DNA of 39,592 bases from Escherichia phage vB_EcoP_LNA7: the sequence record OM630586.1. The stretch is one strand, 5' to 3'. The position numbers and the translations under genes were made by a program. The notes under the pieces were generated by a model, which searched no databases, was not told the origin of the DNA, and saw only the letters and a program-made list of their open reading frames with translations. Of this stretch, positions 6,857 to 38,448 are shown one piece after another (position 1 is the first letter of the stretch; every line of letters begins with the position of its first letter).

Positions 6857-9241
6857 ATGGCACTCATTAGCCAATCAATCAAGAACTTGAAGGGTGGTAT
6901 CAGTCAACAGCCTGACATCCTTCGTTATCCCGACCAAGGGTCACGCCAAGTTAACGGTTGGTCTTCGGAGACCGAGGGCCTCCAAAAGCGTCCACCTATG
7001 GTCTTCTTAAAGACACTTGGAGACAACGGTGCTTTAGGTCAATCTCCGTACATCCACCTGATTAACCGTGATGAGAACGAACAGTATTACGCTGTGTTCA
7101 CCGGAACAGGAATCCGTGTGTTTGACCTTGCTGGTAACGAGAAGCAAGTTAGGTATCCTAACGGTTCCAACTACATCCAGACCGCTCAGCCACGTAACGA
7201 CCTGCGAATGGTTACTGTAGCAGACTATACGTTCATCGTTAACCGTAACGTTGTTGTACAGAAGGACCCACTTTATATCAACTTACCGAATTATAACCCT
7301 AAGCAGGACGCTCTGATAAACGTTCGCGGTGGTCAGTATGGTCGTACCTTACAGATTATGATTAACGGTGGTTTACAAGCCTCCTATCAGATTCCTGATG
7401 GTTCACAGCCAGCACACGTTAATAACACTGACGCTCAGTGGTTAGCAGAAGAGTTGGCTCGCCAGTGTAGAGCAAATACTCCGGGATGGACCTTCAATGT
7501 TGGGCAGGGTTTTATCCACATCATAGCACCTGCGGGTCAACAGATTGATTCCCTGATGACGAAGGATGGCTACGCAGACCAGTTGATTAACCCTGTGACC
7601 CACTACGCTCAGTCGTTCTCTAAGTTGCCACCTAATGCTCCTAATGGCTACATGGTGAAAATCGTAGGGGACGCCTCTAAGTCTGCCGACCAGTATTACG
7701 TTCGGTATGACGCTGAGCGGAAAGTTTGGGCTGAGACTTTAGGTTGGAACACTGAGTACCAAGTTCTATGGAACACCATGCCACACGCTCTTGTGCGAGC
7801 CTCTGATGGTAATTTCGACTTCAAGTGGCTTGAGTGGTCTCCTAAGTCTTGTGGAGACGTTGATACTAACCCTTGGCCTTCTTTTGTTGGTTCAAGTATC
7901 AACGATGTGTTCTTCTTCCGTAACCGCTTAGGATTCCTTAGTGGGGAGAACATCATACTGAGTCGTACAGCCAAATACTTCAACTTCTACCCTGCGTCCA
8001 TTGCGAACCTTAGTGATGACGACCCTATAGATGTAGCTGTGAGTACCAACCGAATAGCAATCCTTAAGTACGCCGTTCCGTTCTCAGAAGAGTTACTCAT
8101 CTGGTCCGACGAGGCACAATTCGTACTTACAGCGTCCGGTACACTTACGTCAAAGTCAGTTGAGTTGAACCTAACGACTCAGTTTGATGTGCAGGACCAA
8201 GCGAGACCTTATGGGATTGGGCGTAACGTCTACTTTGCCAGTCCGAGGTCCAGCTACACGTCCATCCACAGATACTACGCCGTGCAGGATGTAAGTTCCG
8301 TTAAGAACGCTGAGGATATCACAGCCCACGTTCCTAACTACATCCCAAATGGTGTGTTTAGTATTTGTGGTAGTGGTACTGAAAACTTCTGTTCGGTATT
8401 ATCTAACGGGGACCCAAGTAAAATCTTCATATACAAATTCCTGTACCTGAACGAAGAGTTAAGACAACAGTCGTGGTCACATTGGGACTTTGGGGAAAAC
8501 GTACAGGTTCTAGCGTGTCAGAGTATCAGCTCAGATATGTATGTTATTCTTCGCAATGAGTTCAATACGTTCCTAGCTAGAATCTCTTTCACTAAGAACG
8601 CCATTGACTTACGAGGAGAACCTTACCGTGCCTTTATGGACATGAAGGTTCGCTACACGATTCCTAGTGGAACATACAACGATGATACATTCACTACCTC
8701 TATCCATATTCCAACCATTTATGGTGCAAACTTCGGGAGGGACAAAATCACTGTATTGGAGCCTGATGGTAAGATAACCGTATGTGAGCAACCAACTGGT
8801 GGGTGGAATAGTGACCCTTGGCTGAGACTAAACGGTAACTTAGAGGGACGTGAAGTGTTCATTGGGTTCAACATACACTTCGTCTATGAGTTCTCTAAGT
8901 TCCTCATTAAGCAAACTGCCGACGATGGGTCTACCTCCACGGAAGACATTGGGCGCTTACAGTTACGCCGAGCGTGGGTTAACTACGAGGATTCTGGTAC
9001 GTTCGACATTTACGTTGAGAACCAATCGTCCAACTGGAAGTACACAATGGCTGGTGCCCGATTAGGCTCTAACACTCTGAGGGCAGGTCGGCTGAACTTA
9101 GGGACCGGACAATACCGATTCCCTGTGGTGGGTAACGCTAAGTTCAATACCGTATACATCGTGTCCGATGCGACTACTCCGCTGAACATCATTGGGTGTG
9201 GCTGGGAAGGTAACTACTTACGGAGAAGTTCAGGTATTTAA
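6857..9241 (+). CDS. 12: gene 12 tail tubular protein B (nozzle)
   Basis: ORF track 794 aa, same as T7 gp12. Confidence 0.95.
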   Translation: MALISQSIKNLKGGISQQPDILRYPDQGSRQVNGWSSETEGLQKRPPMVFLKTLGDNGALGQSPYIHLINRDENEQYYAVFTGTGIRVFDLAGNEKQVRYPNGSNYIQTAQPRNDLRMVTVADYTFIVNRNVVVQKDPLYINLPNYNPKQDALINVRGGQYGRTLQIMINGGLQASYQIPDGSQPAHVNNTDAQWLAEELARQCRANTPGWTFNVGQGFIHIIAPAGQQIDSLMTKDGYADQLINPVTHYAQSFSKLPPNAPNGYMVKIVGDASKSADQYYVRYDAERKVWAETLGWNTEYQVLWNTMPHALVRASDGNFDFKWLEWSPKSCGDVDTNPWPSFVGSSINDVFFFRNRLGFLSGENIILSRTAKYFNFYPASIANLSDDDPIDVAVSTNRIAILKYAVPFSEELLIWSDEAQFVLTASGTLTSKSVELNLTTQFDVQDQARPYGIGRNVYFASPRSSYTSIHRYYAVQDVSSVKNAEDITAHVPNYIPNGVFSICGSGTENFCSVLSNGDPSKIFIYKFLYLNEELRQQSWSHWDFGENVQVLACQSISSDMYVILRNEFNTFLARISFTKNAIDLRGEPYRAFMDMKVRYTIPSGTYNDDTFTTSIHIPTIYGANFGRDKITVLEPDGKITVCEQPTGGWNSDPWLRLNGNLEGREVFIGFNIHFVYEFSKFLIKQTADDGSTSTEDIGRLQLRRAWVNYEDSGTFDIYVENQSSNWKYTMAGARLGSNTLRAGRLNLGTGQYRFPVVGNAKFNTVYIVSDATTPLNIIGCGWEGNYLRRSSGI

Positions 9242-9271
9242 ATAAATGTTCTCCCTGTGGTGGCTCGAAAT

Positions 9272-9294
9272 TAATACGACTCACTATAGGGAGA
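9272..9294 (+). promoter_or_regulatory. Phage RNAP class III promoter phi13
   Basis: taatacgactcactatagggaga. Confidence 0.95.
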
Positions 9295-9321
9295 ACAATA
9301 CGACTACGGGAGGGTTTTCTT

Positions 9322-9738
9322 ATGATGATTATAAGACCTACTAAAAGTACAGACTTTGAGGTATTCGCTCCTGCTCACCATGACATTCTTGAAGCTAAGG
9401 CTGCTGGTATTGAGCCGAGTTTCCCTGATGCTTCCGAGTGTGTCACGTTGAGCCTCTATGGGTTCCCTCTAGCCATAGGTGGCAACTGTGGGGACCAATG
9501 CTGGTTCGTTACGAGCGACCAAGTGTGGCGACTTAGTGGAAAAGCTAAGCGAGAGTTCCGTAAGTTAATCATGGAGTATCGCGATAAGATGCTTGAGAAG
9601 TATGATACTCTTTGGAATTACGTATGGGTAGGCAATACGTCCCACATTCGTTTCCTCAAGACTATCGGTGCGGTGTTCCATGAAGAGTACACACGAGACG
9701 GTCAATTCCAGTTATTTACAATCACGAAAGGAGGGTAA
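9322..9738 (+). CDS. 13: gene 13 internal virion protein A
   Basis: ORF track 138 aa, MMIIRPTKSTDFEVF... Confidence 0.9.
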   Translation: MMIIRPTKSTDFEVFAPAHHDILEAKAAGIEPSFPDASECVTLSLYGFPLAIGGNCGDQCWFVTSDQVWRLSGKAKREFRKLIMEYRDKMLEKYDTLWNYVWVGNTSHIRFLKTIGAVFHEEYTRDGQFQLFTITKGG

Positions 9739-9742
9739 CCAT

Positions 9743-10333
9743 ATGTGTTGGATGGCTGCAATTCCAATCGCATTGGCTGGTGCTCAGGCTATTAGCGGTC
9801 AGAACACTCAGGCCAAAATGATTGCCGCTCAGACCGCTGCTGGTCGTCGTCAAGCTATGGAAATCATGAAGCAGACGAACATCCAGAATGCTGACCTATC
9901 GCTGCAAGCTCGAAGTAAACTTGAGGAAGCATCCTCTGAGTTGACCTCACAGAACATGCAGAAGGTCCAAGCTATGGGGTCTATCCGAGCGGCTATCGGA
10001 GAGAGTATGCTCGAAGGTTCCTCAATGGACCGCATTAAGCGAGTCACAGAAGGACAGTTCATTCGGGAAGCCAATATGGTAACTGAGAATTATCGCCGTG
10101 ACTACCAAGCAATCTTCGCACAGCAACTTGGTGGTACTCAAAGTGCTGCAAGTCAGATTGACGAAATCTATAAGGGCGAACAGAAACAGAAGAGTAAGCT
10201 ACAGATGATTCTTGACCCACTGGCTATCATGGGGTCTTCCGCTGCGAGTGCTTACGCAGACGGTAAGTTCGACTCTAAGTCCACAACTAAGGCACCTATT
10301 GTTGCCGCTAAAGGAACCAAGACGGGGAGGTAA
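9743..10333 (+). CDS. 14: gene 14 internal core protein
   Basis: ORF 9668..10333 trimmed to ATG 9743 (MCWMAAIPIAL), SD aaggaggg; 196 aa as in T7. Confidence 0.9.
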   Translation: MCWMAAIPIALAGAQAISGQNTQAKMIAAQTAAGRRQAMEIMKQTNIQNADLSLQARSKLEEASSELTSQNMQKVQAMGSIRAAIGESMLEGSSMDRIKRVTEGQFIREANMVTENYRRDYQAIFAQQLGGTQSAASQIDEIYKGEQKQKSKLQMILDPLAIMGSSAASAYADGKFDSKSTTKAPIVAAKGTKTGR

Positions 10334-10339
10334 TGAACT

Positions 10340-12583
10340 ATGAGTAAAATTGAATCTGCCCTTCAAGCGGCACAACCGGGACTCTCTCGGTTACGTAGTG
10401 GCGCTGGTGGTATGGGCTATCGTGCAGCAACCACTCAGGCTGAGCAACCAAGGTCAAGCCTATTGGACACCATTGGTCGGTTCGCTAAGGCTGGTGCCGA
10501 TATGTATACCGCTAAGGAGCAACGAGCACGCGACCTAGCTGACGAACGCTCTAACGAGATTATCCGTAAGCTGACTCCTGAGCAGCGCCGAGAAGCTCTC
10601 AACAACGGGACCCTTCTGTATCAGGATGACCCATACGCTATGGAAGCACTGCGAGTCAAGACTGGTCGTAACGCTGCGTACCTTGTGGACGATGATGTTA
10701 TGCAGAAGGTCAAAGAGGGTGTCTTCCGTACCCGTGAAGAGATGGAAGAGTATCGCCATAGTCGTCTTCAAGAGGGCGCTAAGGCATACGCTGAGCAGTT
10801 TGGTATTGACCCTGAGGACGTTGATTATCAGCGCGGTTTCAACGGGGACATCACTGAGCGTAACATCTCACTGTATGGCGCACACGATAACTTCTTGAGC
10901 CAGCAAGCTCAGAAGGGTGCCATCATGAACAGTCGAGTGGAACTCAACGGTGTCCTTCAAGACCCTGATATGCTGCGCCGCCCAGACTCTGCTGACTTCT
11001 TTGAGAAGTACATCGACAATGGTCTGGTTACTGGGGCAATCCCCTCTGATGCTCAAGCCACTCAGCTTATAAGTCAAGCGTTCAGTGATGCTTCTAGCCG
11101 TGCTGGTGGTGCTGACTTCCTGATGAGAGTCGGTGACAAGAAGGTAACACTTAACGGGGCCACTACGACTTACCGAGAGTTAATGGGTGAAGAACAGTGG
11201 AATGCTCTCATGGTCACAGCACAACGTTCTCAGTTTGAGAATGACGCTAAGCTGAACGAGCAGTATCGCTTGAAGATTAACTCTGCGCTGAACCAAGAGG
11301 ACCCTCGTACTGCGTGGGAGATGCTTCAAGGTGTCAAGGCTGAACTCGATAAGATTCAACCTGATGAGCAGATGACACCGCAACGTGAGTGGCTAATCTC
11401 AGCACAGGAGCAAGTGCAGAATCAGATGAACGCATGGACGAAAGCACAGGCCAAGGCTCTGGATGACTCAATGAAGTCTATGAACAAACTTGACGTAATC
11501 GACAAGCAGTTCCAGAAGCGAATCAACGGTGAGTGGGTCTCAACGGACTTCAAGGACATGCCAACAAACGAGAACACTGGTGAGTTCAAACATAGCGATA
11601 TGGTTAACTACGCCAATAAGAAACTCGCTGAGATTGACAGTATGGATATTCCAGATGCTACCAAGGACGCCATGAAGTTGAAGTATCTTCAAGCGGACTC
11701 TAAGGACGGTGCATTCCGTACAGCAATCGGGACCATGGTAACAGACGCTGGTCAAGAGTGGTCTGCCGCTGTGATTAACGGTAAGTTACCGGACAATACC
11801 CCAGCTTTGGATGCTCTACGCAGAATCCGCAATGCTGACCCTCAGTTGATTGCCGCTCTGTATCCTGACCAAGCTGAGTTATTCCTGACGATGGACATGA
11901 TGGACAAGCAGGGCATTGACCCTCAGGTTATTCTTGACGCTGACCGACTGACTGTCAAGCGATCCAAAGAGCAACGCTTTGAGGACGATAAAGCATTTGA
12001 GTCTGCATTAAATGCGTCTAAGGCTCCTGAGATTGCCCGTATGCCAGCGTCACTGCGAGAATCTGCACGTAAGATTTATGACTCCGTTAAGTATCGCTCA
12101 GGGAACGAAAGCATGGCTATGGAGCAGATGACCAAGTTCCTTAAGGAATCTACCTACACGTTCACTGGTGACGATGTTGATGGTGATACCGTTGGTGTAA
12201 TTCCGAAGAACATGATGCAAGTCAACTCTGACCCGAAATCGTGGGAGCAAGGTCGTGATATTCTGGAGGAAGCACGTAAGGGAATCATTGCGAGCAACCC
12301 TTGGATAACCAACAAGCAACTGACCATGTATTCTCAAGGTGACTCCATTTACCTCATGGACACCACTGGTCAAGTCCGAGTCCGATACGACAAAGAGCTA
12401 CTCTCGAAGGTCTGGAGTGAGAACCAGAAGAAACTCGAAGAGAAAGCTCGTGAGAAGGCTCTGGCTGATGCGAACAAGCGAGCACCTATAGTTGCAGCAA
12501 CGAAAGCCCGTGAAGCTGCTGCTAAACGAGTAAGAGAGAAACGTAAACAGACTCCGAAGTTCATCTATGGACGTAAGGAGTAA
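10340..12583 (+). CDS. 15: gene 15 internal core protein
   Basis: ORF track 747 aa, same as T7 gp15. Confidence 0.95.
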   Translation: MSKIESALQAAQPGLSRLRSGAGGMGYRAATTQAEQPRSSLLDTIGRFAKAGADMYTAKEQRARDLADERSNEIIRKLTPEQRREALNNGTLLYQDDPYAMEALRVKTGRNAAYLVDDDVMQKVKEGVFRTREEMEEYRHSRLQEGAKAYAEQFGIDPEDVDYQRGFNGDITERNISLYGAHDNFLSQQAQKGAIMNSRVELNGVLQDPDMLRRPDSADFFEKYIDNGLVTGAIPSDAQATQLISQAFSDASSRAGGADFLMRVGDKKVTLNGATTTYRELMGEEQWNALMVTAQRSQFENDAKLNEQYRLKINSALNQEDPRTAWEMLQGVKAELDKIQPDEQMTPQREWLISAQEQVQNQMNAWTKAQAKALDDSMKSMNKLDVIDKQFQKRINGEWVSTDFKDMPTNENTGEFKHSDMVNYANKKLAEIDSMDIPDATKDAMKLKYLQADSKDGAFRTAIGTMVTDAGQEWSAAVINGKLPDNTPALDALRRIRNADPQLIAALYPDQAELFLTMDMMDKQGIDPQVILDADRLTVKRSKEQRFEDDKAFESALNASKAPEIARMPASLRESARKIYDSVKYRSGNESMAMEQMTKFLKESTYTFTGDDVDGDTVGVIPKNMMQVNSDPKSWEQGRDILEEARKGIIASNPWITNKQLTMYSQGDSIYLMDTTGQVRVRYDKELLSKVWSENQKKLEEKAREKALADANKRAPIVAATKAREAAAKRVREKRKQTPKFIYGRKE

Positions 12584-15600: not shown

Positions 15601-16566
15601 GATGCTGCGCGTCAAGGTATGCTTGGGGATGTTATTAGTGCCACCCTAACAGGTAAGACTACCCGCTGGGAGAAAGAAGGATTCCTTCGCGGTGCCTCCG
15701 TAACTCCTGAGCAGATGGCTGGCATCAAGTCTCTCATCAAGGAACATATGGTACGCGGTGAGGACGGTAAGTTTACCGTTAAGGACAAACAAGCGTTCTC
15801 TATGGACCCACGGGCTATGGACTTATGGCGACTGGCTGACAAGGTAGCTGATGAGGCAATGCTGCGGCCACATAAGGTGTCCTTACAGGATTCCCATGCG
15901 TTCGGAGCATTAGGTAAGATGGTTATGCAGTTTAAGTCTTTCACTATCAAGTCCCTTAACTCTAAGTTCCTGCGGACATTCTACGACGGATACAAGAACA
16001 ACCGAGCGATTGACGCTGCGCTGAGCATTATCACCTCTATGGGTCTCGCTGGTGGTTTCTATGCTATGGCTGCACACGTCAAAGCATACGCTCTGCCTAA
16101 GGAGAAACGTAAGGAGTACTTGGAGCGTGCATTAGACCCAACCATGATTGCCCACGCTGCGTTGTCTCGTAGTTCTCAATTGGGTGCTCCTTTGGCTATG
16201 GTTGACCTAGTTGGTGGTGCCTTAGGGTTCGAGTCCTCCAAGATGGCTCGCTCTACGATTCTACCTAAGGATACCACGAAGGAACGTGACCCAAACAAAC
16301 CGTACACCTCTAGAGAGGTAATGGGCGCTATGGGTTCAAACCTTCTGGAGCAGATGCCTTCGGCTGGCTTTGTGGCTAACGTTGGTGCTACCTTAATGAA
16401 TGCTGCTGGTGTGGTTAACTCACCTAACAAAGCAACCGAGCAGGACTTCATGACTGGCTTGATGAACTCTACCAAAGAGTTAGTTCCTAACGACCCTCTT
16501 ACTCAACAGCTTGTGGTTAAGATTTATGAGGCCAATGGTGTTAACTTGAGGGAGCGTCGGAAATAA
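12610..16566 (+). CDS. 16: gene 16 internal core protein with N-terminal lytic transglycosylase domain
   Basis: ORF track 1318 aa, same as T7 gp16; transglycosylase-like N-terminus (ESRF...GMMQF). Confidence 0.95.
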   Translation: MDKYDKNVPSDYDGLFQKAADATGVSYDLLRKVAWTESRFVPTAKSKTGPLGMMQFTKATAKALGLRVTDGPDDDRLNPELAINAAAKHLAGLVGKFDGDELKAALAYNQGEGRLGNPQLEAYSKGDFASISEEGRNYMRNLLDVAKSPMAGQLETFGGITPKGKGIPAEVGLAGIGHKQKVTQELPESTSFDVKGIEQEAPAKPFAKDFWETHGETLDEYNNRSTFFGFKNAAEAELSNSVAGMAFRAGRLDNGFDVFKDTITPTRWNSHIWTPEELEKIRTEVKNPAYINVVTGGSPENLDDLIKLANENFENDSRAAEAGLGAKLSAGIIGAGVDPLSYVPMVGVTGKGFKLINKALVVGAESAALNVASEGLRTSVAGGDADYAGAALGGFVFGAGMSAISDAVAAGLKRSKPEAEFDNEFIGPMMRMEARETARNANSADLSRMNTENMKFEGEHNGVPYEELPTERGAVVLHDGSVLSASNPINPKTLKEFSEVDPEKAARGIKLAGFTEIGLKTLGSDDADIRRVAIDLVRSPTGMQSGASGKFGATASDIHERLHGTDQRTYNDLYKAMSDAMKDPEFSTGGAKMSREETRYTIYRRAALAIERPELQKALTPSERIVMDIIKRHFDTKRELMENPAIFGNTKAVSIFPESRHKGTYVPHVYDRHAKALMIQRYGAEGLQEGIARSWMNSYVSRPEVKARVDEMLKEVHGVKEVTPEMVEKYAMDKAYGISHSDQFTNSSIIEENIEGLVGIENNSFLEARNLFDSDLSITMPDGQQFSVNDLRDFDMFRIMPAYDRRINGDIAIMGSTGKTTKELKEEILALKAKAEGDGKKTGEVHALMDTVKILTGRARRNQDTVWETSLRSINDLGFFAKNAYMGAQNITEIAGMIVTGNVRALSHGIPILRDTLYKSKPVSAKELKELHASLFGKEVDQLIRPKRADIVQRLREATDTGPAVANIVGTLKYSTQELAARSPWTKLLNGTTNYLLDAARQGMLGDVISATLTGKTTRWEKEGFLRGASVTPEQMAGIKSLIKEHMVRGEDGKFTVKDKQAFSMDPRAMDLWRLADKVADEAMLRPHKVSLQDSHAFGALGKMVMQFKSFTIKSLNSKFLRTFYDGYKNNRAIDAALSIITSMGLAGGFYAMAAHVKAYALPKEKRKEYLERALDPTMIAHAALSRSSQLGAPLAMVDLVGGALGFESSKMARSTILPKDTTKERDPNKPYTSREVMGAMGSNLLEQMPSAGFVANVGATLMNAAGVVNSPNKATEQDFMTGLMNSTKELVPNDPLTQQLVVKIYEANGVNLRERRK

Positions 16567-16586
16567 TACGACTCACTATAGGGAGA
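16564..16586 (+). promoter_or_regulatory. Phage RNAP class III promoter phi17 (overlaps the gene 16 stop)
   Basis: taatacgactcactatagggaga. Confidence 0.95.
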
Positions 16587-16638
16587 GGCGAAAGAATCTT
16601 CTCCCTGTAGTCTCTTAGATTTACTTTAAGGAGGTCAA

Positions 16639-18438
16639 ATGGCTAACGTAATTAAAACCGTTTTGACTTACCAGTTGGATGGCTCCAATCGTGATTTTAA
16701 TATCCCGTTTGAGTATCTAGCCCGTAAGTTTGTAGTAGTAACCCTTATTGGCGTAGACCGAAAGGTCCTTACGATTAATACAGACTACCGTTTTGCTACT
16801 CGTACTACCATCTCACTGACTAAGGCTTGGGGTCCGTCAGATGGCTACATTACCATCGAGTTACGTCGAGTAACCTCCACGACCGACAGATTGGTTGACT
16901 TTACGGACGGCTCAATCCTCCGTGCGTATGACCTTAACGTTGCTCAGATTCAAACGATGCATGTAGCGGAGGAGGCGCGTGACCTGACTGCTGATACCAT
17001 CGGTGTCAATAATGATGGTCACTTGGATGCCCGTGGTCGTCGAATTGTGAACCTAGCGAACGCCGTGGATGACCGTGACGCTGTTCCGTTTGGTCAACTA
17101 AAGACCATGAACCAGAACTCGTGGCAGGCTCGTAATGAGGCCCTACAGTTCCGCAATGAGGCTGAGACTTTCAGGAATCAAGCGGAGGGCTTTAAGAATG
17201 AGTCCGGTACTAATGCTGCTAATACGAAGCAGTGGCGAGATGAGGCTAATGGGTTCCGAGATGAAGCCGAGCAATTCAAGAATACGGCTGGTCAATATGC
17301 TACATCTGCTGGGAACTCTGCTACTGCTGCGCATCAATCTGAGGTAAACGCTGAGAACTCTGCCACAGCATCCGCTAACTCTGCCGAATTGGCAGAACAG
17401 CAAGCAGACCGGGCTAAGAGCGAGGCGGATAAGCTGGCGAATAATAATGCGTTCGCGGGGACGCTATACTCCATAACCCCAGATAGTCCTGCTGTAATAG
17501 GCTCAGGTACTGTTACATTCAAGTCGTCCTATGCGGTGAATGCTCCAATACTTAGGGCGACAAAAGGTGGCATGTCTCTGGGGAGCGATAGAGTTGATGG
17601 AGATGGTACCTCCACGTTCATCAACTTCTACAAAAACGCTGTAAACGCTGTAGGTAGTATTCAAGTAGGAGATGACGGCACATTCACCATAAATTCCAAC
17701 GGCTGGACGAAACTCGCTGGTAGCGTCACACAGGTGAACCAGCTGCGTTCTGGATACTCAGAGGTTACAGTAAACAACAACAATGTAGCCGTCCACGCCA
17801 GAGCAACAAATCTCAGTGGGGGTGAGGGTCAGACAAACGCAGTATATAACAGATACACGATTGTAGGCCGAGGGTCTAGCGTCTCAGGGGCAGAGGGAGC
17901 GCTAATGGATTTTGGCATACGAGAGGTAGTAGGTAACAGGTATGAGGCATATATGTGGGTAGCAGGCTTTGGTGGATCAGCCGTGTGGACATTTGGTAAT
18001 AATGGCACGTTCAACAGCCCAGCCGATATAGTAGCCAACGGGTCGTTAGTCGCTAATCACAGTCTACGTATTGGGACATGTACCCACGCTGCCGATGGCA
18101 ACATTTTTGGCTCTATCTGGGGTAACGATTGGTTAACCAATTACCTAAACAGGTCGTTTAAGAGGAAAACCAAAGGATGGACTTCGGTGTGGAATGGGAG
18201 AATAGGTGCCGGAGGTGTAGCATGGCTGACCCAAGATGTACGTTTTAGAACCATTTGGATACGCACAGCGGCCCAGCCTAATACGTGGACGCCAATTCAA
18301 CTTGGCCCGGATGGGACGTATATGGCGCGACCTGACCCTGGCTGGATTAGGTTCACACTTGCTAACAATGGTACATCCATAACCAACAACCAAGATGATA
18401 ACTCTGTTCCTATCGAGATTGTCGTAGAGAATGAGTAA
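16639..18438 (+). CDS. 17: gene 17 tail fibre; T7-like N-terminus, non-T7 C-terminal receptor-binding region
   Basis: ORF track 599 aa; first ~260 aa match T7 gp17 (MANVIKTVLTYQLDGSNRDF...), remainder differs and the protein is 46 aa longer than T7 (553 aa). Confidence 0.9.
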   Translation: MANVIKTVLTYQLDGSNRDFNIPFEYLARKFVVVTLIGVDRKVLTINTDYRFATRTTISLTKAWGPSDGYITIELRRVTSTTDRLVDFTDGSILRAYDLNVAQIQTMHVAEEARDLTADTIGVNNDGHLDARGRRIVNLANAVDDRDAVPFGQLKTMNQNSWQARNEALQFRNEAETFRNQAEGFKNESGTNAANTKQWRDEANGFRDEAEQFKNTAGQYATSAGNSATAAHQSEVNAENSATASANSAELAEQQADRAKSEADKLANNNAFAGTLYSITPDSPAVIGSGTVTFKSSYAVNAPILRATKGGMSLGSDRVDGDGTSTFINFYKNAVNAVGSIQVGDDGTFTINSNGWTKLAGSVTQVNQLRSGYSEVTVNNNNVAVHARATNLSGGEGQTNAVYNRYTIVGRGSSVSGAEGALMDFGIREVVGNRYEAYMWVAGFGGSAVWTFGNNGTFNSPADIVANGSLVANHSLRIGTCTHAADGNIFGSIWGNDWLTNYLNRSFKRKTKGWTSVWNGRIGAGGVAWLTQDVRFRTIWIRTAAQPNTWTPIQLGPDGTYMARPDPGWIRFTLANNGTSITNNQDDNSVPIEIVVENE

Positions 18439-21290: not shown

Positions 21291-21731
21291 ATGATAAGTA
21301 AGAAGAAGTATGTAGTTGATAAGGAGACTGGCTGCTGGAACTTTAAGGGATGTAAGACGAAGACTGGCTATGGTCGTCTCCGTGTAAATGGAGTCCATTG
21401 GATGGCCCACAGGTATTCCCTGAGTTGTCATCTAGGTAGACCGATAGCTGATGGAATGGTTGTGATGCACCTATGTGATAACCCATCATGTGTTAACCCT
21501 GAGCATCTTAAGGAAGGGACTCAGAAGGAGAACATAGAGGATTGTATATCAAAAGGAAGAGCAACAAAGGCTACTGGTAAACGTATGTCGAGAAGGGACC
21601 CTAGCGAGGAACGTAAGGCTATGGTCATTCGTCGCTACCATAAAGGATGGACAGCAACGTCCATAGCAAGATACCATAAGCTCTCTGTAGCGTGGGTAAA
21701 GAGGGTCATCGAGGCTTACCTAAGTGATTGA
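21291..21731 (+). CDS. Free-standing HNH homing endonuclease between genes 19 and 19.5 (no T7 counterpart at this position as far as I recall)
   Basis: ORF track 146 aa; HLCDNPSCVNPEHL HNH motif, paralogous to gp7.7; C-terminal HTH-like SIARYHKLSVAWVKRVI; SD aaggaggt. Confidence 0.85.
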   Translation: MISKKKYVVDKETGCWNFKGCKTKTGYGRLRVNGVHWMAHRYSLSCHLGRPIADGMVVMHLCDNPSCVNPEHLKEGTQKENIEDCISKGRATKATGKRMSRRDPSEERKAMVIRRYHKGWTATSIARYHKLSVAWVKRVIEAYLSD

Positions 21732-22285: not shown

Positions 22286-22446
22286 TCTCACAGTGTACGG
22301 ACCCAAAGTTCCCCCCATAGGGGCCCCTAAAGCCCAGCCAATCACCTAAAGTTACCTTTCAGTTGACCTTGAGGGGTCCCTAAGGGTTGGGGTTGACCCT
22401 TTGAGTGTCTCCTTGGGTGTTACCTTGAGTGTCTCTCTGTGTCCCT
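22286..22446. repeat. Terminal repeat (direct terminal redundancy), present once because the permuted assembly collapses the two ends; physical genome ends predicted near 22286 and 22446
   Basis: Starts tctcacagtgtacgg (canonical T7 left-end sequence) and ends ...ctctctgtgtccct; boundaries placed by recall of the T7 repeat. Confidence 0.7.
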
Positions 22447-30487: not shown

Positions 30488-30792
<305 letters not shown>

Positions 30793-30795
<3 letters not shown>

Positions 30796-30815
30796 TACGA
30801 CTCACTATTAGGGAA
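30793..30815 (+). promoter_or_regulatory. Phage RNAP class II promoter phi2.5
   Basis: taatacgactcactattagggaa. Confidence 0.9.
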
Positions 30816-30860
30816 GACTACCTGTGAGAAACTAAACGAAACCTAAAGGAGATTAACATT

Positions 30861-31559
30861 ATGGCTAAGAAGATTTTCACCTCTGCGCTGGGTACCGCTG
30901 AACCTTACGCTTACATCGCCAAGCCGGACTACGGTAACGAAGAGCGTGGCTTTGGGAACCCTCGTGGTGTATACAAAGTTGACCTGACTATTCCCAACAA
31001 AGACCCGCGCTGCCAGCGTATGGTCGATGAAATCGTGAAGTGTCACGAAGAGGCTTATGCTGCTGCCGTTGAGGAATACGAAGCGAATCCACCTGCTGTA
31101 GCTCGTGGTAAGAAACCGCTGAAACCGTATGAAGGCGACATGCCGTTCTTCGATAATGGTGACGGCACGACTACCTTTAAGTTTAAATCTTACGCATCAT
31201 ATCAGGATAAGAAGACCAAAGAGACCAAGCACATCAATCTGGTTGTGGTTGACTCCAAAGGTAAGAAGATGGAAGACGTTCCGATTATCGGTGGTGGCTC
31301 TAAGCTGAAAGTCAAGTACTCTCTGGTTCCGTACAAGTGGAACACCGCTGTCGGTGCGAGCGTTAAGTTGCAACTGGAATCCGTAATGCTGGTCGAACTG
31401 GCTACCTTTGGTGGTGGTGAAGATGATTGGGCTGACGAAGTTGAAGAGAACGGCTATGTTGCCTCTGGTTCTGCCAAAGCTAGCAAACCACGCGACGAAG
31501 AAAGCTGGGACGAAGACGACGAAGGCTCTTACGAAGAAGACTCAGACGGAGATTTCTAA
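30861..31559 (+). CDS. 2.5: gene 2.5 single-stranded DNA-binding protein
   Basis: ORF track 232 aa, acidic C-terminal tail ending ...DGDF. Confidence 0.95.
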   Translation: MAKKIFTSALGTAEPYAYIAKPDYGNEERGFGNPRGVYKVDLTIPNKDPRCQRMVDEIVKCHEEAYAAAVEEYEANPPAVARGKKPLKPYEGDMPFFDNGDGTTTFKFKSYASYQDKKTKETKHINLVVVDSKGKKMEDVPIIGGGSKLKVKYSLVPYKWNTAVGASVKLQLESVMLVELATFGGGEDDWADEVEENGYVASGSAKASKPRDEESWDEDDEGSYEEDSDGDF

Positions 31560-32015
31560 GTGGCTGGCGCATACGCTGCGCGTGGTATCCGAAAGGTCGG
31601 GACATTCCGTTCCGGCCTAGAAGATAAGGTCTCTAAGCAGCTAGAGAGTAAAGGTATACAGTTTGACTACGAGCAGTGGAAGATTCCCTACGTAGTCCCT
31701 GCGAGTAATCACACGTATTGCCCAGATTTTCTACTGCCCAATGGTATCTTCATCGAGACCAAGGGGCTATGGGAAAGTGACGACCGCAAGAAGCATCTCC
31801 TGATTCGCGAGCAGATGCCAGAGCTAGATATACGACTTGTGTTCTCAAGCTCCCGCACAAAACTCTACAAAGGGTCTCCAACGTCCTATGCAGAATTTTG
31901 TGAAAAACACGGTATCCTGTTTGCTGACAAATTAATTCCTGTAGAATGGCTCAAAGAACCCAAAAAGGAGGTGCCATTTGACAAGCTGAAACAATCGAAA
32001 GGAGGAAAGAAATAA
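31560..32015 (+). CDS. 3: gene 3 endonuclease I (Holliday junction resolvase), GTG start immediately after the gene 2.5 stop
   Basis: ORF track 151 codons, (M)AGAYAARGIRKVGTFRSGLEDKVSKQLESKGI..., matches T7 gp3; ggag 10 nt upstream of GTG. Confidence 0.85.
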   Translation: MAGAYAARGIRKVGTFRSGLEDKVSKQLESKGIQFDYEQWKIPYVVPASNHTYCPDFLLPNGIFIETKGLWESDDRKKHLLIREQMPELDIRLVFSSSRTKLYKGSPTSYAEFCEKHGILFADKLIPVEWLKEPKKEVPFDKLKQSKGGKK

Positions 32016-32470
32016 TGGCACGAGTACAATTTAAACAACGTGAATCTACTGATGCAATCTTTGTCCACTGCTCGGCTACAAAGCCAAGTCAGAATGTAGG
32101 GGTTCGCGAGATTCGCCAGTGGCATAAAGAGCAAGGTTGGCTTGATGTCGGGTATCACTTTATCATCAAGCGCGATGGTACTGTAGAGGAAGGCCGAGAT
32201 GAGATGGCTGTAGGCTCTCACGCTAAAGGCTATAATCATAACTCTATTGGTGTATGCCTTGTGGGTGGTATTGACGATAAAGGTAAGTTCAAGGCTAACT
32301 TTACGCCAGCCCAAATGCAATCCCTCCGCTCACTGCTTGTCACACTGCTGGCTAAGTACGAAGGCGCTGTGCTTCGCGCACATCACGATGTGGCTCCTAA
32401 GGCTTGCCCATCGTTCGACCTTAAGCGTTGGTGGGAGAAGAACGAACTGGTCACTTCTGACCGTGGATAA
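32015..32470 (+). CDS. 3.5: gene 3.5 lysozyme (N-acetylmuramoyl-L-alanine amidase) and inhibitor of phage RNAP
   Basis: ORF track 151 aa, MARVQFKQRESTDAIFVHCSATKPSQNVGVREIRQWHKEQGWLDVGYHFII... Confidence 0.95.
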   Translation: MARVQFKQRESTDAIFVHCSATKPSQNVGVREIRQWHKEQGWLDVGYHFIIKRDGTVEEGRDEMAVGSHAKGYNHNSIGVCLVGGIDDKGKFKANFTPAQMQSLRSLLVTLLAKYEGAVLRAHHDVAPKACPSFDLKRWWEKNELVTSDRG

Positions 32471-32471
32471 T

Positions 32472-32494
32472 TAATTGAACTCACTAAAGGGAGA
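32472..32494 (+). promoter_or_regulatory. Phage RNAP class II promoter phi3.8, followed by the gggagaccacaacggtttccc hairpin
   Basis: taattgaactcactaaagggaga. Confidence 0.85.
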
Positions 32495-32526
32495 CCACAA
32501 CGGTTTCCCTTTGTTCGCATTGTTGA

Positions 32527-34245
<1,719 letters not shown>

Positions 34246-34263
34246 AAGAATACTTGATGATTT

Positions 34264-34286
34264 TAATTAGACTCACTAAAGGAGCT
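34264..34286 (+). promoter_or_regulatory. Phage RNAP class II promoter phi4.3 (here directly upstream of an HNH gene)
   Basis: taattagactcactaaaggagct. Confidence 0.8.
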
Positions 34287-34292
34287 AACCAC

Positions 34293-34718
34293 ATGGACAC
34301 TAACTTAGCGAGATTTGAAAGATTCTTGAAGATTGATGGTGACTGCTGGCTGTTCACTGGTGGAAGGGCACACTCCTATGGAGTCTTCTGGATGAACGGT
34401 AAGAATCACAGGGCACATAGGGCCGCCTTCGAACTTTATAACGGGAGGAAACCTAATGGTGTTATATTACACTCTTGTGATAATCCTTTGTGCTGCAATC
34501 CCTCTCATCTATCTGAGGGAACTCAGCTTGATAATATGGTGGACATGGTTAGAAAGGGACGCTCACTGAGAGGCACGAAGAATCCAATGTGCAAGTTTAC
34601 TGATGTGGATGTTAAGTTCATCCGAGAGTCTACTATGAAGGTTAAGGATTTAGCTGCTTTATTCGGAGTAACACGCCAAACAATAACCAAATGGAGGAGA
34701 CACACATGTTCAAACTGA
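34293..34718 (+). CDS. Free-standing HNH homing endonuclease between promoter phi4.3 and gene 4.3
   Basis: ORF 34254..34718 trimmed to ATG 34293 (MDTNLARFERFLKIDGDCWLF...); LHSCDNPLCCNPSHL HNH motif; C-terminal HTH-like LAALFGVTRQTITKWRRH; 141 aa. Confidence 0.85.
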   Translation: MDTNLARFERFLKIDGDCWLFTGGRAHSYGVFWMNGKNHRAHRAAFELYNGRKPNGVILHSCDNPLCCNPSHLSEGTQLDNMVDMVRKGRSLRGTKNPMCKFTDVDVKFIRESTMKVKDLAALFGVTRQTITKWRRHTCSN

Positions 34719-35712: not shown

Positions 35713-37671
35713 ATGATCGTTTCTGACATCGAAGCTAACGCCCTCTTAGAGAGCGTCACTAAGTTCCACTGCGGGGTTATCTACGACTACTCCACCGCTG
35801 AGTACGTAAGCTACCGTCCGAGTGACTTCGGTGCGTATCTGGATGCGCTGGAAGCCGAGGTTGCACGAGGCGGTCTTATTGTGTTCCACAACGGTCACAA
35901 GTATGACGTTCCTGCATTGACCAAACTGGCAAAGTTACAATTGAACCGAGAGTTCCACCTTCCTCGTGAGAACTGTATTGACACCCTTGTACTGTCACGA
36001 TTGATTCACTCTAACCTGAAAGACACCGATATGGGTCTTCTGCGTTCCGGTAAGCTGCCTGGGAAACGCTTTGGGTCTCACGCTTTGGAGGCGTGGGGTT
36101 ATCGCTTAGGCGAGATGAAGGGTGAATACAAGGATGACTTTAAGCGTATGCTTGAAGAGCAAGGTGAAGAGTACGTTGACGGAATGGAGTGGTGGAACTT
36201 CAACGAAGAGATGATGGCCTATAACGTTCAGGACGTTGTGGTGACTAAGGCTCTACTTGAGAAGTTAATCTCTGACAAACACTACTTCCCCGACCAAGGT
36301 ATCGACTGGACTGACGTAGGTAACACATTCTGGCGTGAGTCTGTAGAGGCTGTCGAGCTAGAGCATAAAGCTGCGTGGCTGCTCGCTAAGCAGGAACGTA
36401 ACGGCTTTCCATTCAATACCAAAGCTATCGAAGACCTGTACGTAGAGTTGGCTGCTCGTCGCTCTGAGTTGCTCATGAAGTTGACCGAAACGTTTGGCTC
36501 GTGGTATCAACCTAAAGGTGGCACCGAAATGTTCTGCCATCCGAGGACTGGTAAACCACTGCCTAAATACCCTCGCATTAAGACACCTAAAGTTGGTGGC
36601 ATCTTTAAGAAGCCTAAGAACAAGGCACAGCGAGAAGGACGTGAGCCTTGCGAACTGGATACCCGAGAGTACGTTGCTGGTGCTCCTTACACCCCAGTTG
36701 AGCACGTGGTGTTTAACCCATCGTCTCGTGACCACATTCAGAAGAAACTCCAAGAGGCTGGATGGGTCCCTACCAAGTACACCGATAAGGGTGCTCCTGT
36801 GGTGGACGATGAGGTACTCGAAGGAGTACGTGTAGATGACCCTGAGAAGCAAGCTGCTATCGACCTCATTAAAGAGTACCTGATGATTCAGAAGCGAATC
36901 GGACAGTCTGCTGAGGGAGACAAGGCGTGGCTGCGTTACGTTCAAGAGGACGGTAAGATTCATGGTTCTGTTAACCCTAATGGAGCAGTTACAGGTCGTG
37001 CGACCCATGCGTTCCCCAACCTTGCGCAAATTCCGGGTGTACGTTCTCCTTATGGAGAGCAGTGTCGCGCTGCTTTTGGCGCTGAGCACCATTTGGATGG
37101 GATAACCGGTAAGCCTTGGGTTCAGGCTGGTATCGACGCATCCGGCCTTGAGTTGCGCTGCTTGGCCCACTTCATGGCTCGCTTTGATAACGGTGAGTAT
37201 GCTCACGAGATTCTTAATGGCGACATCCACACTAAGAACCAGATGGCTGCCGAACTGCCTACCCGTGATAACGCTAAGACGTTCATCTATGGGTTCCTTT
37301 ATGGTGCTGGTGATGAGAAGATTGGACAGATTGTTGGTGCTGGTAAAGAGCGCGGTAAGGAACTCAAGAAGAAATTCCTTGAGAACACCCCAGCGATTGC
37401 AGCACTCCGTGAGTCTATCCAACAGACCCTTGTCGAGTCCTCTCAGTGGGTAGCTGGTGAGCAGCAAGTAAAGTGGAAACGCCGCTGGATTAAAGGTCTG
37501 GATGGTCGTAAGGTACACGTTCGTAGTCCTCACGCTGCTTTGAATACCCTACTGCAATCTGCTGGTGCTCTCATCTGCAAACTGTGGATTATCAAGACCG
37601 AAGAGATGCTCGTAGAGAAAGGCTTGAAGCATGGCTGGGATGGGGACTTTGCGTACATGGCGTGGGTGCAT
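35713..37671 (+). CDS. 5: gene 5 DNA polymerase, exon 1 (653 codons)
   Basis: ORF track 35713..37722; homology to T7 gp5 stops after ...DFAYMAWVH at 37671, and the remaining 17 codons of the ORF are intron sequence. Confidence 0.9.
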
Positions 37672-38273
37672 AAACAAATTTCATTGTGCACATTAAATCT
37701 GGTGAACTCGGTGAAACCCTAATGGGGCAATACCGAGCCAAGCCATAGGGAGGATATATGAGAGGCAAGAAGTTAATTCTTGAGGCCACTGAGACTGGCT
37801 GTATCATCCCTACGTCACACAAACTTAATGCCGATGGTTATTTCAGAAAGAAAACCAATGGCGTCTTGGAGATGTATCACAGAACGGTGTGGAAGGAGCA
37901 TAATGGAGAAATACCAGAAGGCTTCGAGATAGACCATAAGTGTCGCAATAGGGCTTGCTGTAACATAGAGCATTTACAGATGCTTGAAGGTACAGCCCAC
38001 ACTGTTAAGACCAATCGTGAACGCTACGCAGACAGAAAGGAAACAGCTAGGGAATACTGGCTGGAGACTGGATGTACCGGCCTAGCACTAGGTGAGAAGT
38101 TTGGTGTGTCGTTCTCTTCCGCTTGTAAGTGGATTAGAGAATGGAAGGCGTAGAGACTATCCGAAAGGAGTAGGGCCGAGGGTGAGACTCCCTCGTAACC
38201 CGAAGCGCCAGACAGTCAACTCAAAGGCTGATGATATAGTCCGACACTCCTAGTAATAGGAGAATACAGAAAG
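37672..38273 (+). mobile_element. Group I self-splicing intron (602 nt) in DNA polymerase gene 5, carrying an HNH homing endonuclease ORF
   Basis: Exon 1 ends in U; intron ends in G; internal guide GUGCAC (37686..37691) pairs with exon end GUGCAU including the U.G wobble; R-like AGAGACUA (38152..38159) and S-like GAUGAUAUAGUCC (38230..38242) can form P7; joining the exons restores a 704-codon polymerase. Confidence 0.85.
37758..38153 (+). CDS. Intron-encoded HNH homing endonuclease
   Basis: ORF track 131 aa; EIDHKCRNRACCNIEHL HNH motif; own SD gggagg; lies entirely within the intron. Confidence 0.85.
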   Translation: MRGKKLILEATETGCIIPTSHKLNADGYFRKKTNGVLEMYHRTVWKEHNGEIPEGFEIDHKCRNRACCNIEHLQMLEGTAHTVKTNRERYADRKETAREYWLETGCTGLALGEKFGVSFSSACKWIREWKA

Positions 38274-38429
38274 GATGAAATTCAAGTAGGTTGCCGCACC
38301 GAAGAGATTGCTCAGGTGGTCATTGAGACCGCACAAGAAGCAATGCGCTGGGTTGGAGACCACTGGAACTTCAGGTGTCTTCTGGATACCGAAGGTAAGA
38401 TGGGTCCTAACTGGGCCGTATGTCACTGA
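38274..38429 (+). CDS. 5: gene 5 DNA polymerase, exon 2 (51 codons plus stop)
   Basis: Encodes DEIQVGCRTEEIAQVVIETAQEAMRWVGDHWNFRCLLDTEGKMGPNWAVCH, the canonical gp5 C-terminus, in frame with exon 1 once 37672..38273 is removed. Confidence 0.85.
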   Translation, partial: DEIQVGCRTEEIAQVVIETAQEAMRWVGDHWNFRCLLDTEGKMGPNWAVCH

Positions 38430-38448
38430 TTATATAGGAGAAATTATT

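Follow-up and report, generated by a model that had tools for sequence, protein, structure and literature searches.

The HNH-free gene 2.5/gene 3 junction of Escherichia phage vB_EcoP_LNA7, with a probable GTG start for endonuclease I, as the empty allele of a polymorphic homing-endonuclease site

In the genome of Escherichia phage vB_EcoP_LNA7 (sequence record OM630586.1), gene 2.5, encoding a single-stranded DNA-binding protein (SSB), and gene 3, encoding endonuclease I, directly adjoin, and the HNH gene 2.8 that separates them in phage T7 is missing. We analysed the whole stretch of 39,592 nucleotides (nt), called the window here, which is a complete, circularly permuted Teseptimavirus (T7 group) genome about 90-92% identical to its nearest deposited relatives. 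The locus comprises the following features, taken from the list of open reading frames (ORFs), Pfam and the sequence itself:

30861..31559, plus strand: gene 2.5, SSB of 232 amino acids (aa); its acidic C-terminal tail ends in DGDF (ORF list, Pfam)
31548..31551, plus strand: GGAG resembling a Shine-Dalgarno (SD) motif, 8 nt before the GTG (read from the sequence)
31557..31559, plus strand: TAA that ends gene 2.5; it shares the gene 3 frame and immediately precedes the GTG
31560..31562, plus strand: GTG, probable initiation codon of gene 3, zero spacer after the TAA
31560..32015, plus strand: gene 3, endonuclease I (Holliday-junction resolvase), 151 aa
32015..32470, plus strand: gene 3.5, amidase/lysozyme (Amidase_2, PF01510; ORF list, Pfam)

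The three genes are packed stop-to-start, with TAA followed immediately by GTG at the 2.5/3 border and TAATG at the 3/3.5 border, where the ATG of gene 3.5 overlaps the TAA of gene 3 by 1 nt. Genes 2.5 and 3 share one reading frame ((31560-30861) mod 3 = 0), and the GGAG is embedded in the codons GAC-GGA-GAT for the D-G-D of the tail of the gene 2.5 product, gp2.5 (codons 229-231); positions 31540-31570 read actcagacGGAGatttcTAAGTGgctggcg. In Pfam, gp2.5 was assigned to SBB_T7 (PF21265, E 3e-89), and gene 3, with the SSB gene on one side and the amidase gene on the other, stands in the synteny expected for the endonuclease I family. An initial annotation of this stretch had described a TAA at 31557..31559 followed by a GTG that opens the endonuclease I frame, and the sequence, Pfam and the alignment to PDB structures all bear this out; its SD-like ggag is present as well, although the spacing given for it, 10 nt upstream, was approximate, the measured distance being 8 nt. 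Two further ORFs cross the junction, one on the minus strand (31480-31605, 41 aa) and one on the plus strand in another frame (31408-31620, 70 aa). Both were treated as mechanical ORFs in coding sequence; the recognised genes of this phage group all lie on one strand.

The product of gene 3 matches Phage_endo_I (PF05367; E 7e-81, 269.6 bits against a cut-off of 29.1), with residues 1-149 on profile positions 1-148 of 149, that is, from the first residue and with no frameshift. Full-length alignments were also obtained with the T7 endonuclease I structures 2pfj (E 2e-87), 1m0d and 1fzr, and the segments sGLEDk, tyCPDFll and fIETKg of the window protein fall on the GLED, PDF and ETAG of 2pfj_A, which carries A at the K67 position. 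The residues aligned with the active site of the T7 enzyme (E20, D55, E65 and K67) are conserved. The closest aa sequence is that of Shigella phage ESh2 (97.4% identity), and the identity to T7 gp3 is 86.8%.

Within this frame the GTG is the only workable start, because the TAA stands directly upstream and the next ATG, at codon 86 (31815), lies past the catalytic residues. An upstream alternative is excluded by the in-frame TAA, and a scan of the frame for ATG, GTG and TTG returned nothing after codon 1 until codon 86, in agreement with the initial annotation, which had held that gene 3 has no ATG near its start and must use GTG. Starting at codon 86 would remove the catalytic N-terminal half with the GLED, PDF and ETKG motifs. 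The GTG at 31560 is, with high probability, the initiation codon of gene 3 and would be the one used in vivo. Folding of the RNA around this start (31520-31600) gave a structure not more stable than that of shuffled sequence (z = +0.83).

The relevant test for a lone stop-start junction of this kind is its conservation and not its chance frequency. An identical TAAGTGGCTGGCGCA junction was found in 13a, Bas102, ESh2, Yanou, vB_Yep_15 and 15 IMG/VR contigs, and because it recurs in every close relative that was read, the junction is not a sequencing slip. The SD region GACGGAGAYTTCTAAGTGG is shared by 13a, Yanou, vB_Yep_15, ESh2, Bas102 and 14 IMG/VR contigs. TAAGTG itself was read in the window, in the same five phages and in 14 related IMG/VR loci (L019-L030, L032 and L033); the exact-pattern scan also returned 14 contigs, 13 of them shared with this locus set, adding Enterobacter phage KNP3 and missing L030, so that the total is 15. 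L030 has GGGG instead of GGAG before the junction. At the level of whole isolates, 13a (EU734174 / NC_011045), Bas102, ESh2, Yanou, C5, N30 and 64795_ec1 have a junction identical to that of the window, GACGGAGAYTTCTAAGTGGCTGGCGCA, without gene 2.8, and differ from the window there by point differences only, the 96-nt junction probe being 90-99% identical in these Teseptimavirus isolates.

When a 1.3-kb probe across 2.5-3-3.5 was used, 113 records were matched at at least 80% coverage, with 13a as the best (91.8%), and nearly all of them are annotated as SSB, endonuclease and amidase without an intervening gene. For the early and DNA-metabolism region, the nearest deposited genome is Bas102 (92.3% identity). 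The 96-nt junction probe matched 59 GenBank phage records, 58 of which, from several host genera, cross the junction without an insert; the sole exception, PHB19, has a different HNH gene there. The records of 13a, Bas102 and Yanou annotate a 456-nt gene 3 from the base after the gene 2.5 stop, and in 13a, with its 151-aa gp3, and in Bas102 the annotated start is the same GTG as here. The HNH-free TAAGTG junction is the majority state in Teseptimavirus and T7 is the exception, which reverses the polarity and the unusualness that the initial annotation had implied. The arrangement is real, ordinary and already known and annotated: it is the empty allele of a polymorphic homing-endonuclease site.

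Several records treat this gene unevenly. Gene 3 is intact, with GTG after the gene 2.5 stop, yet unannotated in the records of vB_Yep_15 (PV596791; L004 1061-1516), HZ2R8, HZP2 and KNP3, and in PHB19 it is annotated 5'-truncated, from 1888 and not from the ATG near 1816. The KNP3 record (KX452696 / NC_047856; L016, L037), 44.9 kb long, contains two different 2.5/3 junctions, a TAAGTGG one on the minus strand near 11443-11523 and a TAATGG one near 41234-44911, suggesting a chimeric or duplicated assembly.

Other lineages use different start codons at the same place. One IMG/VR locus (L031) has TAAATG, and T3 as well as L034-L040, L042 and L044 have TAATG, in which the ATG overlaps the stop by 1 nt. 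In T3 (NC_003298, 9586), gene 3 likewise directly follows gene 2.5 without an HNH gene and begins with the codons GCTGGCGCATACGCT; the difference is that TAATG is one base shorter than TAAGTG and puts gene 3 out of the frame of gene 2.5. The strongest argument for initiation at the GTG is precisely this, that the position is fixed while the codon varies between lineages. It also bears on the idea that gene 3 starts further downstream or is a decaying, non-functional gene, for which one may cite the weak initiation signal of a GTG behind a 4-nt SD and the lack of a gene 3 annotation in vB_Yep_15, HZ2R8 and HZP2. Sister lineages have an ATG at exactly the position of codon 1, the ORF matches PF05367 and the PDB structures from end to end without a frameshift, and the first in-frame start after the GTG, at codon 86, would delete the residues aligned with E20, D55, E65 and K67; we regard such a gene as extremely unlikely.

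In T7 (NC_001604, compared over 9158-10706), gene 2.5 ends at 9856, gene 2.8 occupies 9857-10276 and gene 3 occupies 10257-10706, so that gene 2.8 (139 aa) overlaps the ATG of gene 3 by 20 nt. The initial annotation had correctly described for T7 just such an HNH gene between genes 2.5 and 3 overlapping the gene 3 ATG. In Pfam, gp2.8 matches HNH_3 and the homing-endonuclease zinc-loop family. Gene 2.8 opens at a GTG (9857) that adjoins the TAA of gene 2.5 and is likewise preceded by the GGAG; the T7 junction reads GACGGAGACTTCTAAGTGG followed by AACTGCGG..., or, divided at the end of the shared sequence, TTCTAAGTGG followed by AACTG..., and the GTG that initiates gene 2.8 is the homologue of the GTG of gene 3 in the window. 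T7 and the window are alike in the tail of gene 2.5, the SD, the TAA and the GTGG, and their gene 3 encodes the same enzyme; they differ in that gene 3 of T7 starts 400 nt further on, at an ATG with the SD GGGAGG.

Alignment of the window with the 2.5-2.8-3 region of T7 yielded clean breakpoints. In blastn, homology stops at window position 31563 (T7 9860) and resumes at 31584 (T7 10278), and between these points 417 nt of T7, consisting of the body of gene 2.8 together with a new SD, an ATG and the first codons of gene 3, replace 20 nt of the window:

31564..31583, plus strand: CTGGCGCATACGCTGCGCGT, comprising codons 2-8 of gene 3; unoccupied insertion site and candidate homing target (blastn, alignments)

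The right end of the T7 insert, ...CGCAAAGGGAGGCGACATGGCAGGTTACGGCGCTAAAGGA, carries the GGGAGG, the ATG and a recoded gene 3 N-terminus inside the 3' end of gene 2.8; the first seven codons are altered, T7 gp3 beginning MAGYGAKG and the window protein (M)AGAYAARG. These clean breakpoints, together with the occupied relatives, identify the junction of the window as an empty HNH allele, which is how the initial annotation had read it when it spoke of an endonuclease-free allele: an HNH gene is present at this exact site in some relatives and absent here.

Occupied sites are few. A probe of the 2.5-2.8-3 region of T7 was matched in full only by T7 laboratory strains and AH67C600_Q5 and in part by JSS1, RN5i1 and FE44, and matches to the other natural relatives end at query position 162 (T7 9860), just after TAAGTGG. 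Genes resembling 2.8 were found at the 2.5/3 site only in the T7 strains, AH67C600_Q5, JSS1, RN5i1, FE44 and the IMG/VR locus L046. They come from Teseptimavirus (T7), Berlinvirus (FE44) and unclassified Studiervirinae, with empty sites in the majority, and HNH occupancy of the 2.5/3 site is a minority, sporadic state. In each occupied genome compared for this, the HNH gene starts at the local form of the junction, TAAGTG in T7, TAAATG in FE44 and TAATG in L046, and the latter two are the forms used for gene 3 by empty-site genomes of other lineages. That FE44 and L046 follow their local forms suggests an insertion point just 3' of the resident start codon.

The polarity of the change is indicated by the neighbouring sequence. 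Between T7 and the window, nt identity is 72.4% in gene 3, 94.6% in gene 2.5 and 91.2% in gene 3.5, and the parallel comparison of T7 with 13a gave 72.6% for gene 3 and 96.1% for the flanking gene. In the alignment, the divergent block of T7 takes in genes 2.8 and 3 and stops close to the 3/3.5 border, as would be expected from co-conversion of the flank during homing from a more distant donor. The first 60 nt of gene 3 in the window are 98% identical to 13a, and its first codons, GCTGGCGCATACGCTGCGCG, are common to T3-type phages with TAATG. Because T7 gene 3 is only 72% identical to that of the window, against 91-95% for the flanking genes, T7 appears to be the derived state carrying an insertion, and the window would have kept the original start context, which T7 retains ahead of gene 2.8.

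The opposite course, also raised by the initial annotation as a precise loss that removed the original start context, would have a T7-like ancestor deleting gene 2.8 along with the ATG context, so that gene 3 became fused to the GTG of gene 2.8. The use of the same TAAGTGG by T7 gene 2.8 and by gene 3 of the window fits this, since removal of the T7 sequence between the end of GTGG and the end of the ATGG could conceivably yield such a junction. It would, however, leave the T7 allele of gene 3, GCAGGTTACGGCGCTAAAGGA... (72% identity), where the window has a 13a-type allele, and the same junction recurs in 58 records across several host genera amid a sporadic occupancy by gene 2.8. The supposedly removed context of SD, TAA and GTG is still there in T7, where gene 2.8 uses it. 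Gene 2.8 is indeed missing from the window, as had been noted: tblastn with gp2.8 found neither a match nor a remnant at the junction, and elsewhere in the window only other HNH genes, with 27-44% identity, and no relocated copy. An IMG/VR contig (IMGVR_UViG_2700988866_000001, 38.6 kb; locus L045) may be a case of HNH loss, but for the window we consider a secondary loss very unlikely.

At positions 1975-2003, this contig has a T7-type gene 3 start, GGGAGGTCACATGGCAGGTTAC, with the N-terminus MAGYGAKG and a 21-nt spacer after the gene 2.5 stop. It may be the footprint of the loss of a 2.8-like gene, or else the pre-insertion or donor context of the cassette.

Taken together, positions 31557-31562 probably represent the normal HNH-free 2.5/3 junction of the T7 group, with gene 3 translated from the GTG at 31560 and T7 carrying a derived insertion of gene 2.8; we put the probability of this interpretation at roughly 0.88. 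Several points weigh against it. The polarity rests on the distribution of the alleles and on the linked divergent gene 3 allele and not on a rooted phylogeny. Gene 3 is mosaic even among HNH-free phages, the window being 84% identical to 13a at the nt level in this gene as opposed to 96% in gene 2.5, and part of the divergence of T7 gene 3 may be unrelated to gene 2.8. The contig just described combines a T7-type SD, the ATG and AGYGAKG without an HNH gene, so this context can exist without gene 2.8. As to translation, we found no N-terminal sequence or ribosome profiling in support of GTG initiation for this phage or its relatives, and the sequence fits both coupling to gene 2.5 and independent SD-driven initiation of gene 3.

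A free-standing HNH homing-endonuclease gene would, according to the insertion scenario, have entered the T7 lineage right after TAAGTGG, where its own translation could have come to rely on the resident SD and GTG, with its 3' end supplying gene 3 with the replacement SD GGGAGG, an ATG and seven altered first codons. The junction of the window could then be a cleavage and homing target of enzymes of the gp2.8 type. More specifically, 31557-31583 (TAAGTGG plus about 20 nt) may be the natural target of the gp2.8 family, with the HNH gene landing just behind the start codon of an essential downstream gene, capturing the SD and start codon of that gene and equipping the displaced gene, from within the HNH gene's 3' end, with a replacement SD and ATG and with a 5' end recoded to be immune to cleavage. 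We offer this as a tentative proposal, about which some doubt is warranted. A fixed insertion design of this kind fits the HNH genes of T7, FE44 and L046, each of which starts at whichever junction form is local, and the same architecture occurs at the 3.8/gene 4 site of T7 and at the HNH/gene 3.5 site of Yanou.

In their sporadic presence at one precise intergenic site, and in the existence of alleles lacking the homing-endonuclease gene (HEG), 2.8-like genes resemble the free-standing homing genes of phages, such as the seg and mob genes of T4 (for SegB, see PMC2330249). A further likeness to the T4 systems is the divergence of the neighbouring gene in HEG-plus genomes, which flank co-conversion or target-site immunity would predict; transfer of an endonuclease gene together with flanking sequences has been described (PMC2330249). 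They differ in that gp2.8 is a putative homing enzyme, known here from its sequence, and in that the T7 HNH gene apparently uses the start codon that belonged to the gene behind it and gives that gene another. We did not find the apparent capture of a start codon by gene 2.8, combined with a replacement SD, ATG and recoded 5' end, described elsewhere; it concerns T7 and not the window. In the literature, T7 genes 2.8, 3.8 and 7.7 have been treated as homing endonuclease genes whose triple deletion mutant is viable, and the T7 HNH genes have been linked to the evasion of a bacterial defence system (bioRxiv 10.1101/2025.09.07.674715). Our literature search returned only this one preprint in which gene 2.8 was deleted, and no report of an activity or target of gp2.8 or of GTG initiation of gene 3.

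Alone, the empty junction has little significance. It supports the annotation of gene 3 from the GTG at 31560 and marks T7 as a poor reference for the 2.5/3 junction, and the comparison sets the exact boundaries of the T7 2.8 element (417 nt for 20 nt, with the resident start codon captured). It also provides a natural pair of HEG-plus and HEG-minus alleles for asking whether gp2.8 is an active homing endonuclease. Because the T7 HNH genes have been linked to defence evasion (bioRxiv 10.1101/2025.09.07.674715), vB_EcoP_LNA7, naturally without genes 2.8, 3.8 and 5.3 but with HNH genes elsewhere, could serve as a comparator to T7.

Two promoter-like elements flank the gene cluster:

30793..30817, plus strand: T7-type class II promoter, TAATACGACTCACTATTAGGGAAGA, equivalent to phi2.5, which is annotated at the corresponding position in 13a and T7
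32472-32494: weaker phi3.8-type promoter, read by eye

The core of the phi2.5-type promoter, ACGACTCACTA, lies at 30797-30807, and a core search found no other T7-type core between it (30797) and 33635, the phi3.8-type promoter having been seen by eye only. A scan of 30700-32600 for sigma-70 promoters and terminators gave counts at or below those in shuffled sequences. The phi2.5-type promoter would drive transcription of genes 2.5, 3 and 3.5. Ribosomes could reach the GTG of gene 3 via the GGAG 8 nt upstream, via termination and reinitiation at the TAA/GTG, or by both routes; those finishing the abundant gp2.5 at 31559 could reinitiate at the adjoining GTG, helped by the GGAG. Abutting stop and start codons with an SD inside the upstream coding sequence are the structure expected for translational coupling. 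With a weak start codon and an SD of 4 nt following a very highly expressed gene, the output of the nuclease might be kept low and tied to that of gene 2.5. Coupling and low expression of gene 3 would follow from the general principles of translational coupling.

The shared frame, in which genes 2.5 and 3 are separated by the TAA alone (as are genes 2.5 and 2.8 in T7), invites the thought that readthrough of the stop codon gives a functional gp2.5-gp3 fusion protein. This frame is not conserved, however, as the TAATG of the T3 type shifts gene 3 out of it, and the junction shows no readthrough signal or RNA structure. Termination at a TAA with a G after it is efficient in E. coli, and gp2.5 requires its free C-terminal Phe for its interactions. 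We consider such a fusion extremely unlikely.

Across this phage group, HNH genes form a general presence/absence mosaic, of which the empty 2.8 site is a single example, and the HNH set of the window differs from that of T7 at almost every site. The sites of genes 2.8, 3.8 and 5.3 are empty in the window, whose HNH genes lie at the 7.7 site, in the 4/4.3 and 19/19.5 spacers and in a group I intron within gene 5. At the second empty site (window 32472-32560 versus T7 (L100) 11163-11600), gene 3.8 is absent and the phi3.8-type promoter is kept. Gene 4 of the window starts at the ATG at 32542 with the N-terminus MELEQDS, as opposed to MDNSHDSDS in T7, and its first 200 nt are 64% identical to T7. 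In T7, genes 3.8 and 4 overlap by 26 nt, and the SD and ATG of gene 4 lie in the 3' end of gene 3.8, the same design as for genes 2.8 and 3. T7 gene 5.3 (T7 16483-16839) is also absent, its T7 flanks lying about 3 nt apart at window 38430-38433.

Among the occupied sites, an HNH ORF at 34254-34718 lies between genes 4 and 4.3 and overlaps the start of gene 4.3 at 34706, and another at 21291-21731 lies between genes 19 and 19.5; both sites are empty in T7. Their products are 42-43% (34254-34718) and 35-43% (21291-21731) identical at the aa level to T7 gp2.8 and gp7.7. The HNH gene at the 7.7 position (1858-2247) has 70% protein identity to gp7.7, and the surrounding late region has about 94% DNA identity. 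In relatives, Cedecea phage Yanou (L003 1514-1963), vB_Yep_15 (L004 1513-1962) and the IMG/VR locus L033 (about 2483-2857) have an HNH gene between genes 3 and 3.5, with 39% aa identity to gp2.8 and a 2.5/3 junction as empty as that of the window; this gene overlaps the annotated start of gene 3.5 by 20 nt, the same length as the overlap of genes 2.8 and 3 in T7.

Gene 5 (DNA polymerase, 35713-38429) is interrupted by 602 nt (37672-38273) right after the codons for ...AWVH, and joining 37671 to 38274 restores a polymerase of 704 aa that is 96.6% identical to T7 gp5. The insertion holds an HNH ORF of 131 aa (37758-38153) and matches the Rfam group I intron model RF00028 over its full length with 44.8 bits (E 4.7e-10), the gathering score being 50; at gathering thresholds, Rfam gave no matches anywhere in the window. 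It resembles the HNH-bearing group I introns in the DNA polymerase genes of some T7-like phages. Finally, T7 position 1 maps to 22286 and T7 position 39937 to 22446, corresponding to one copy of the terminal repeat of about 160 bp, and the true genome ends probably lie within 22286-22446 of the window.

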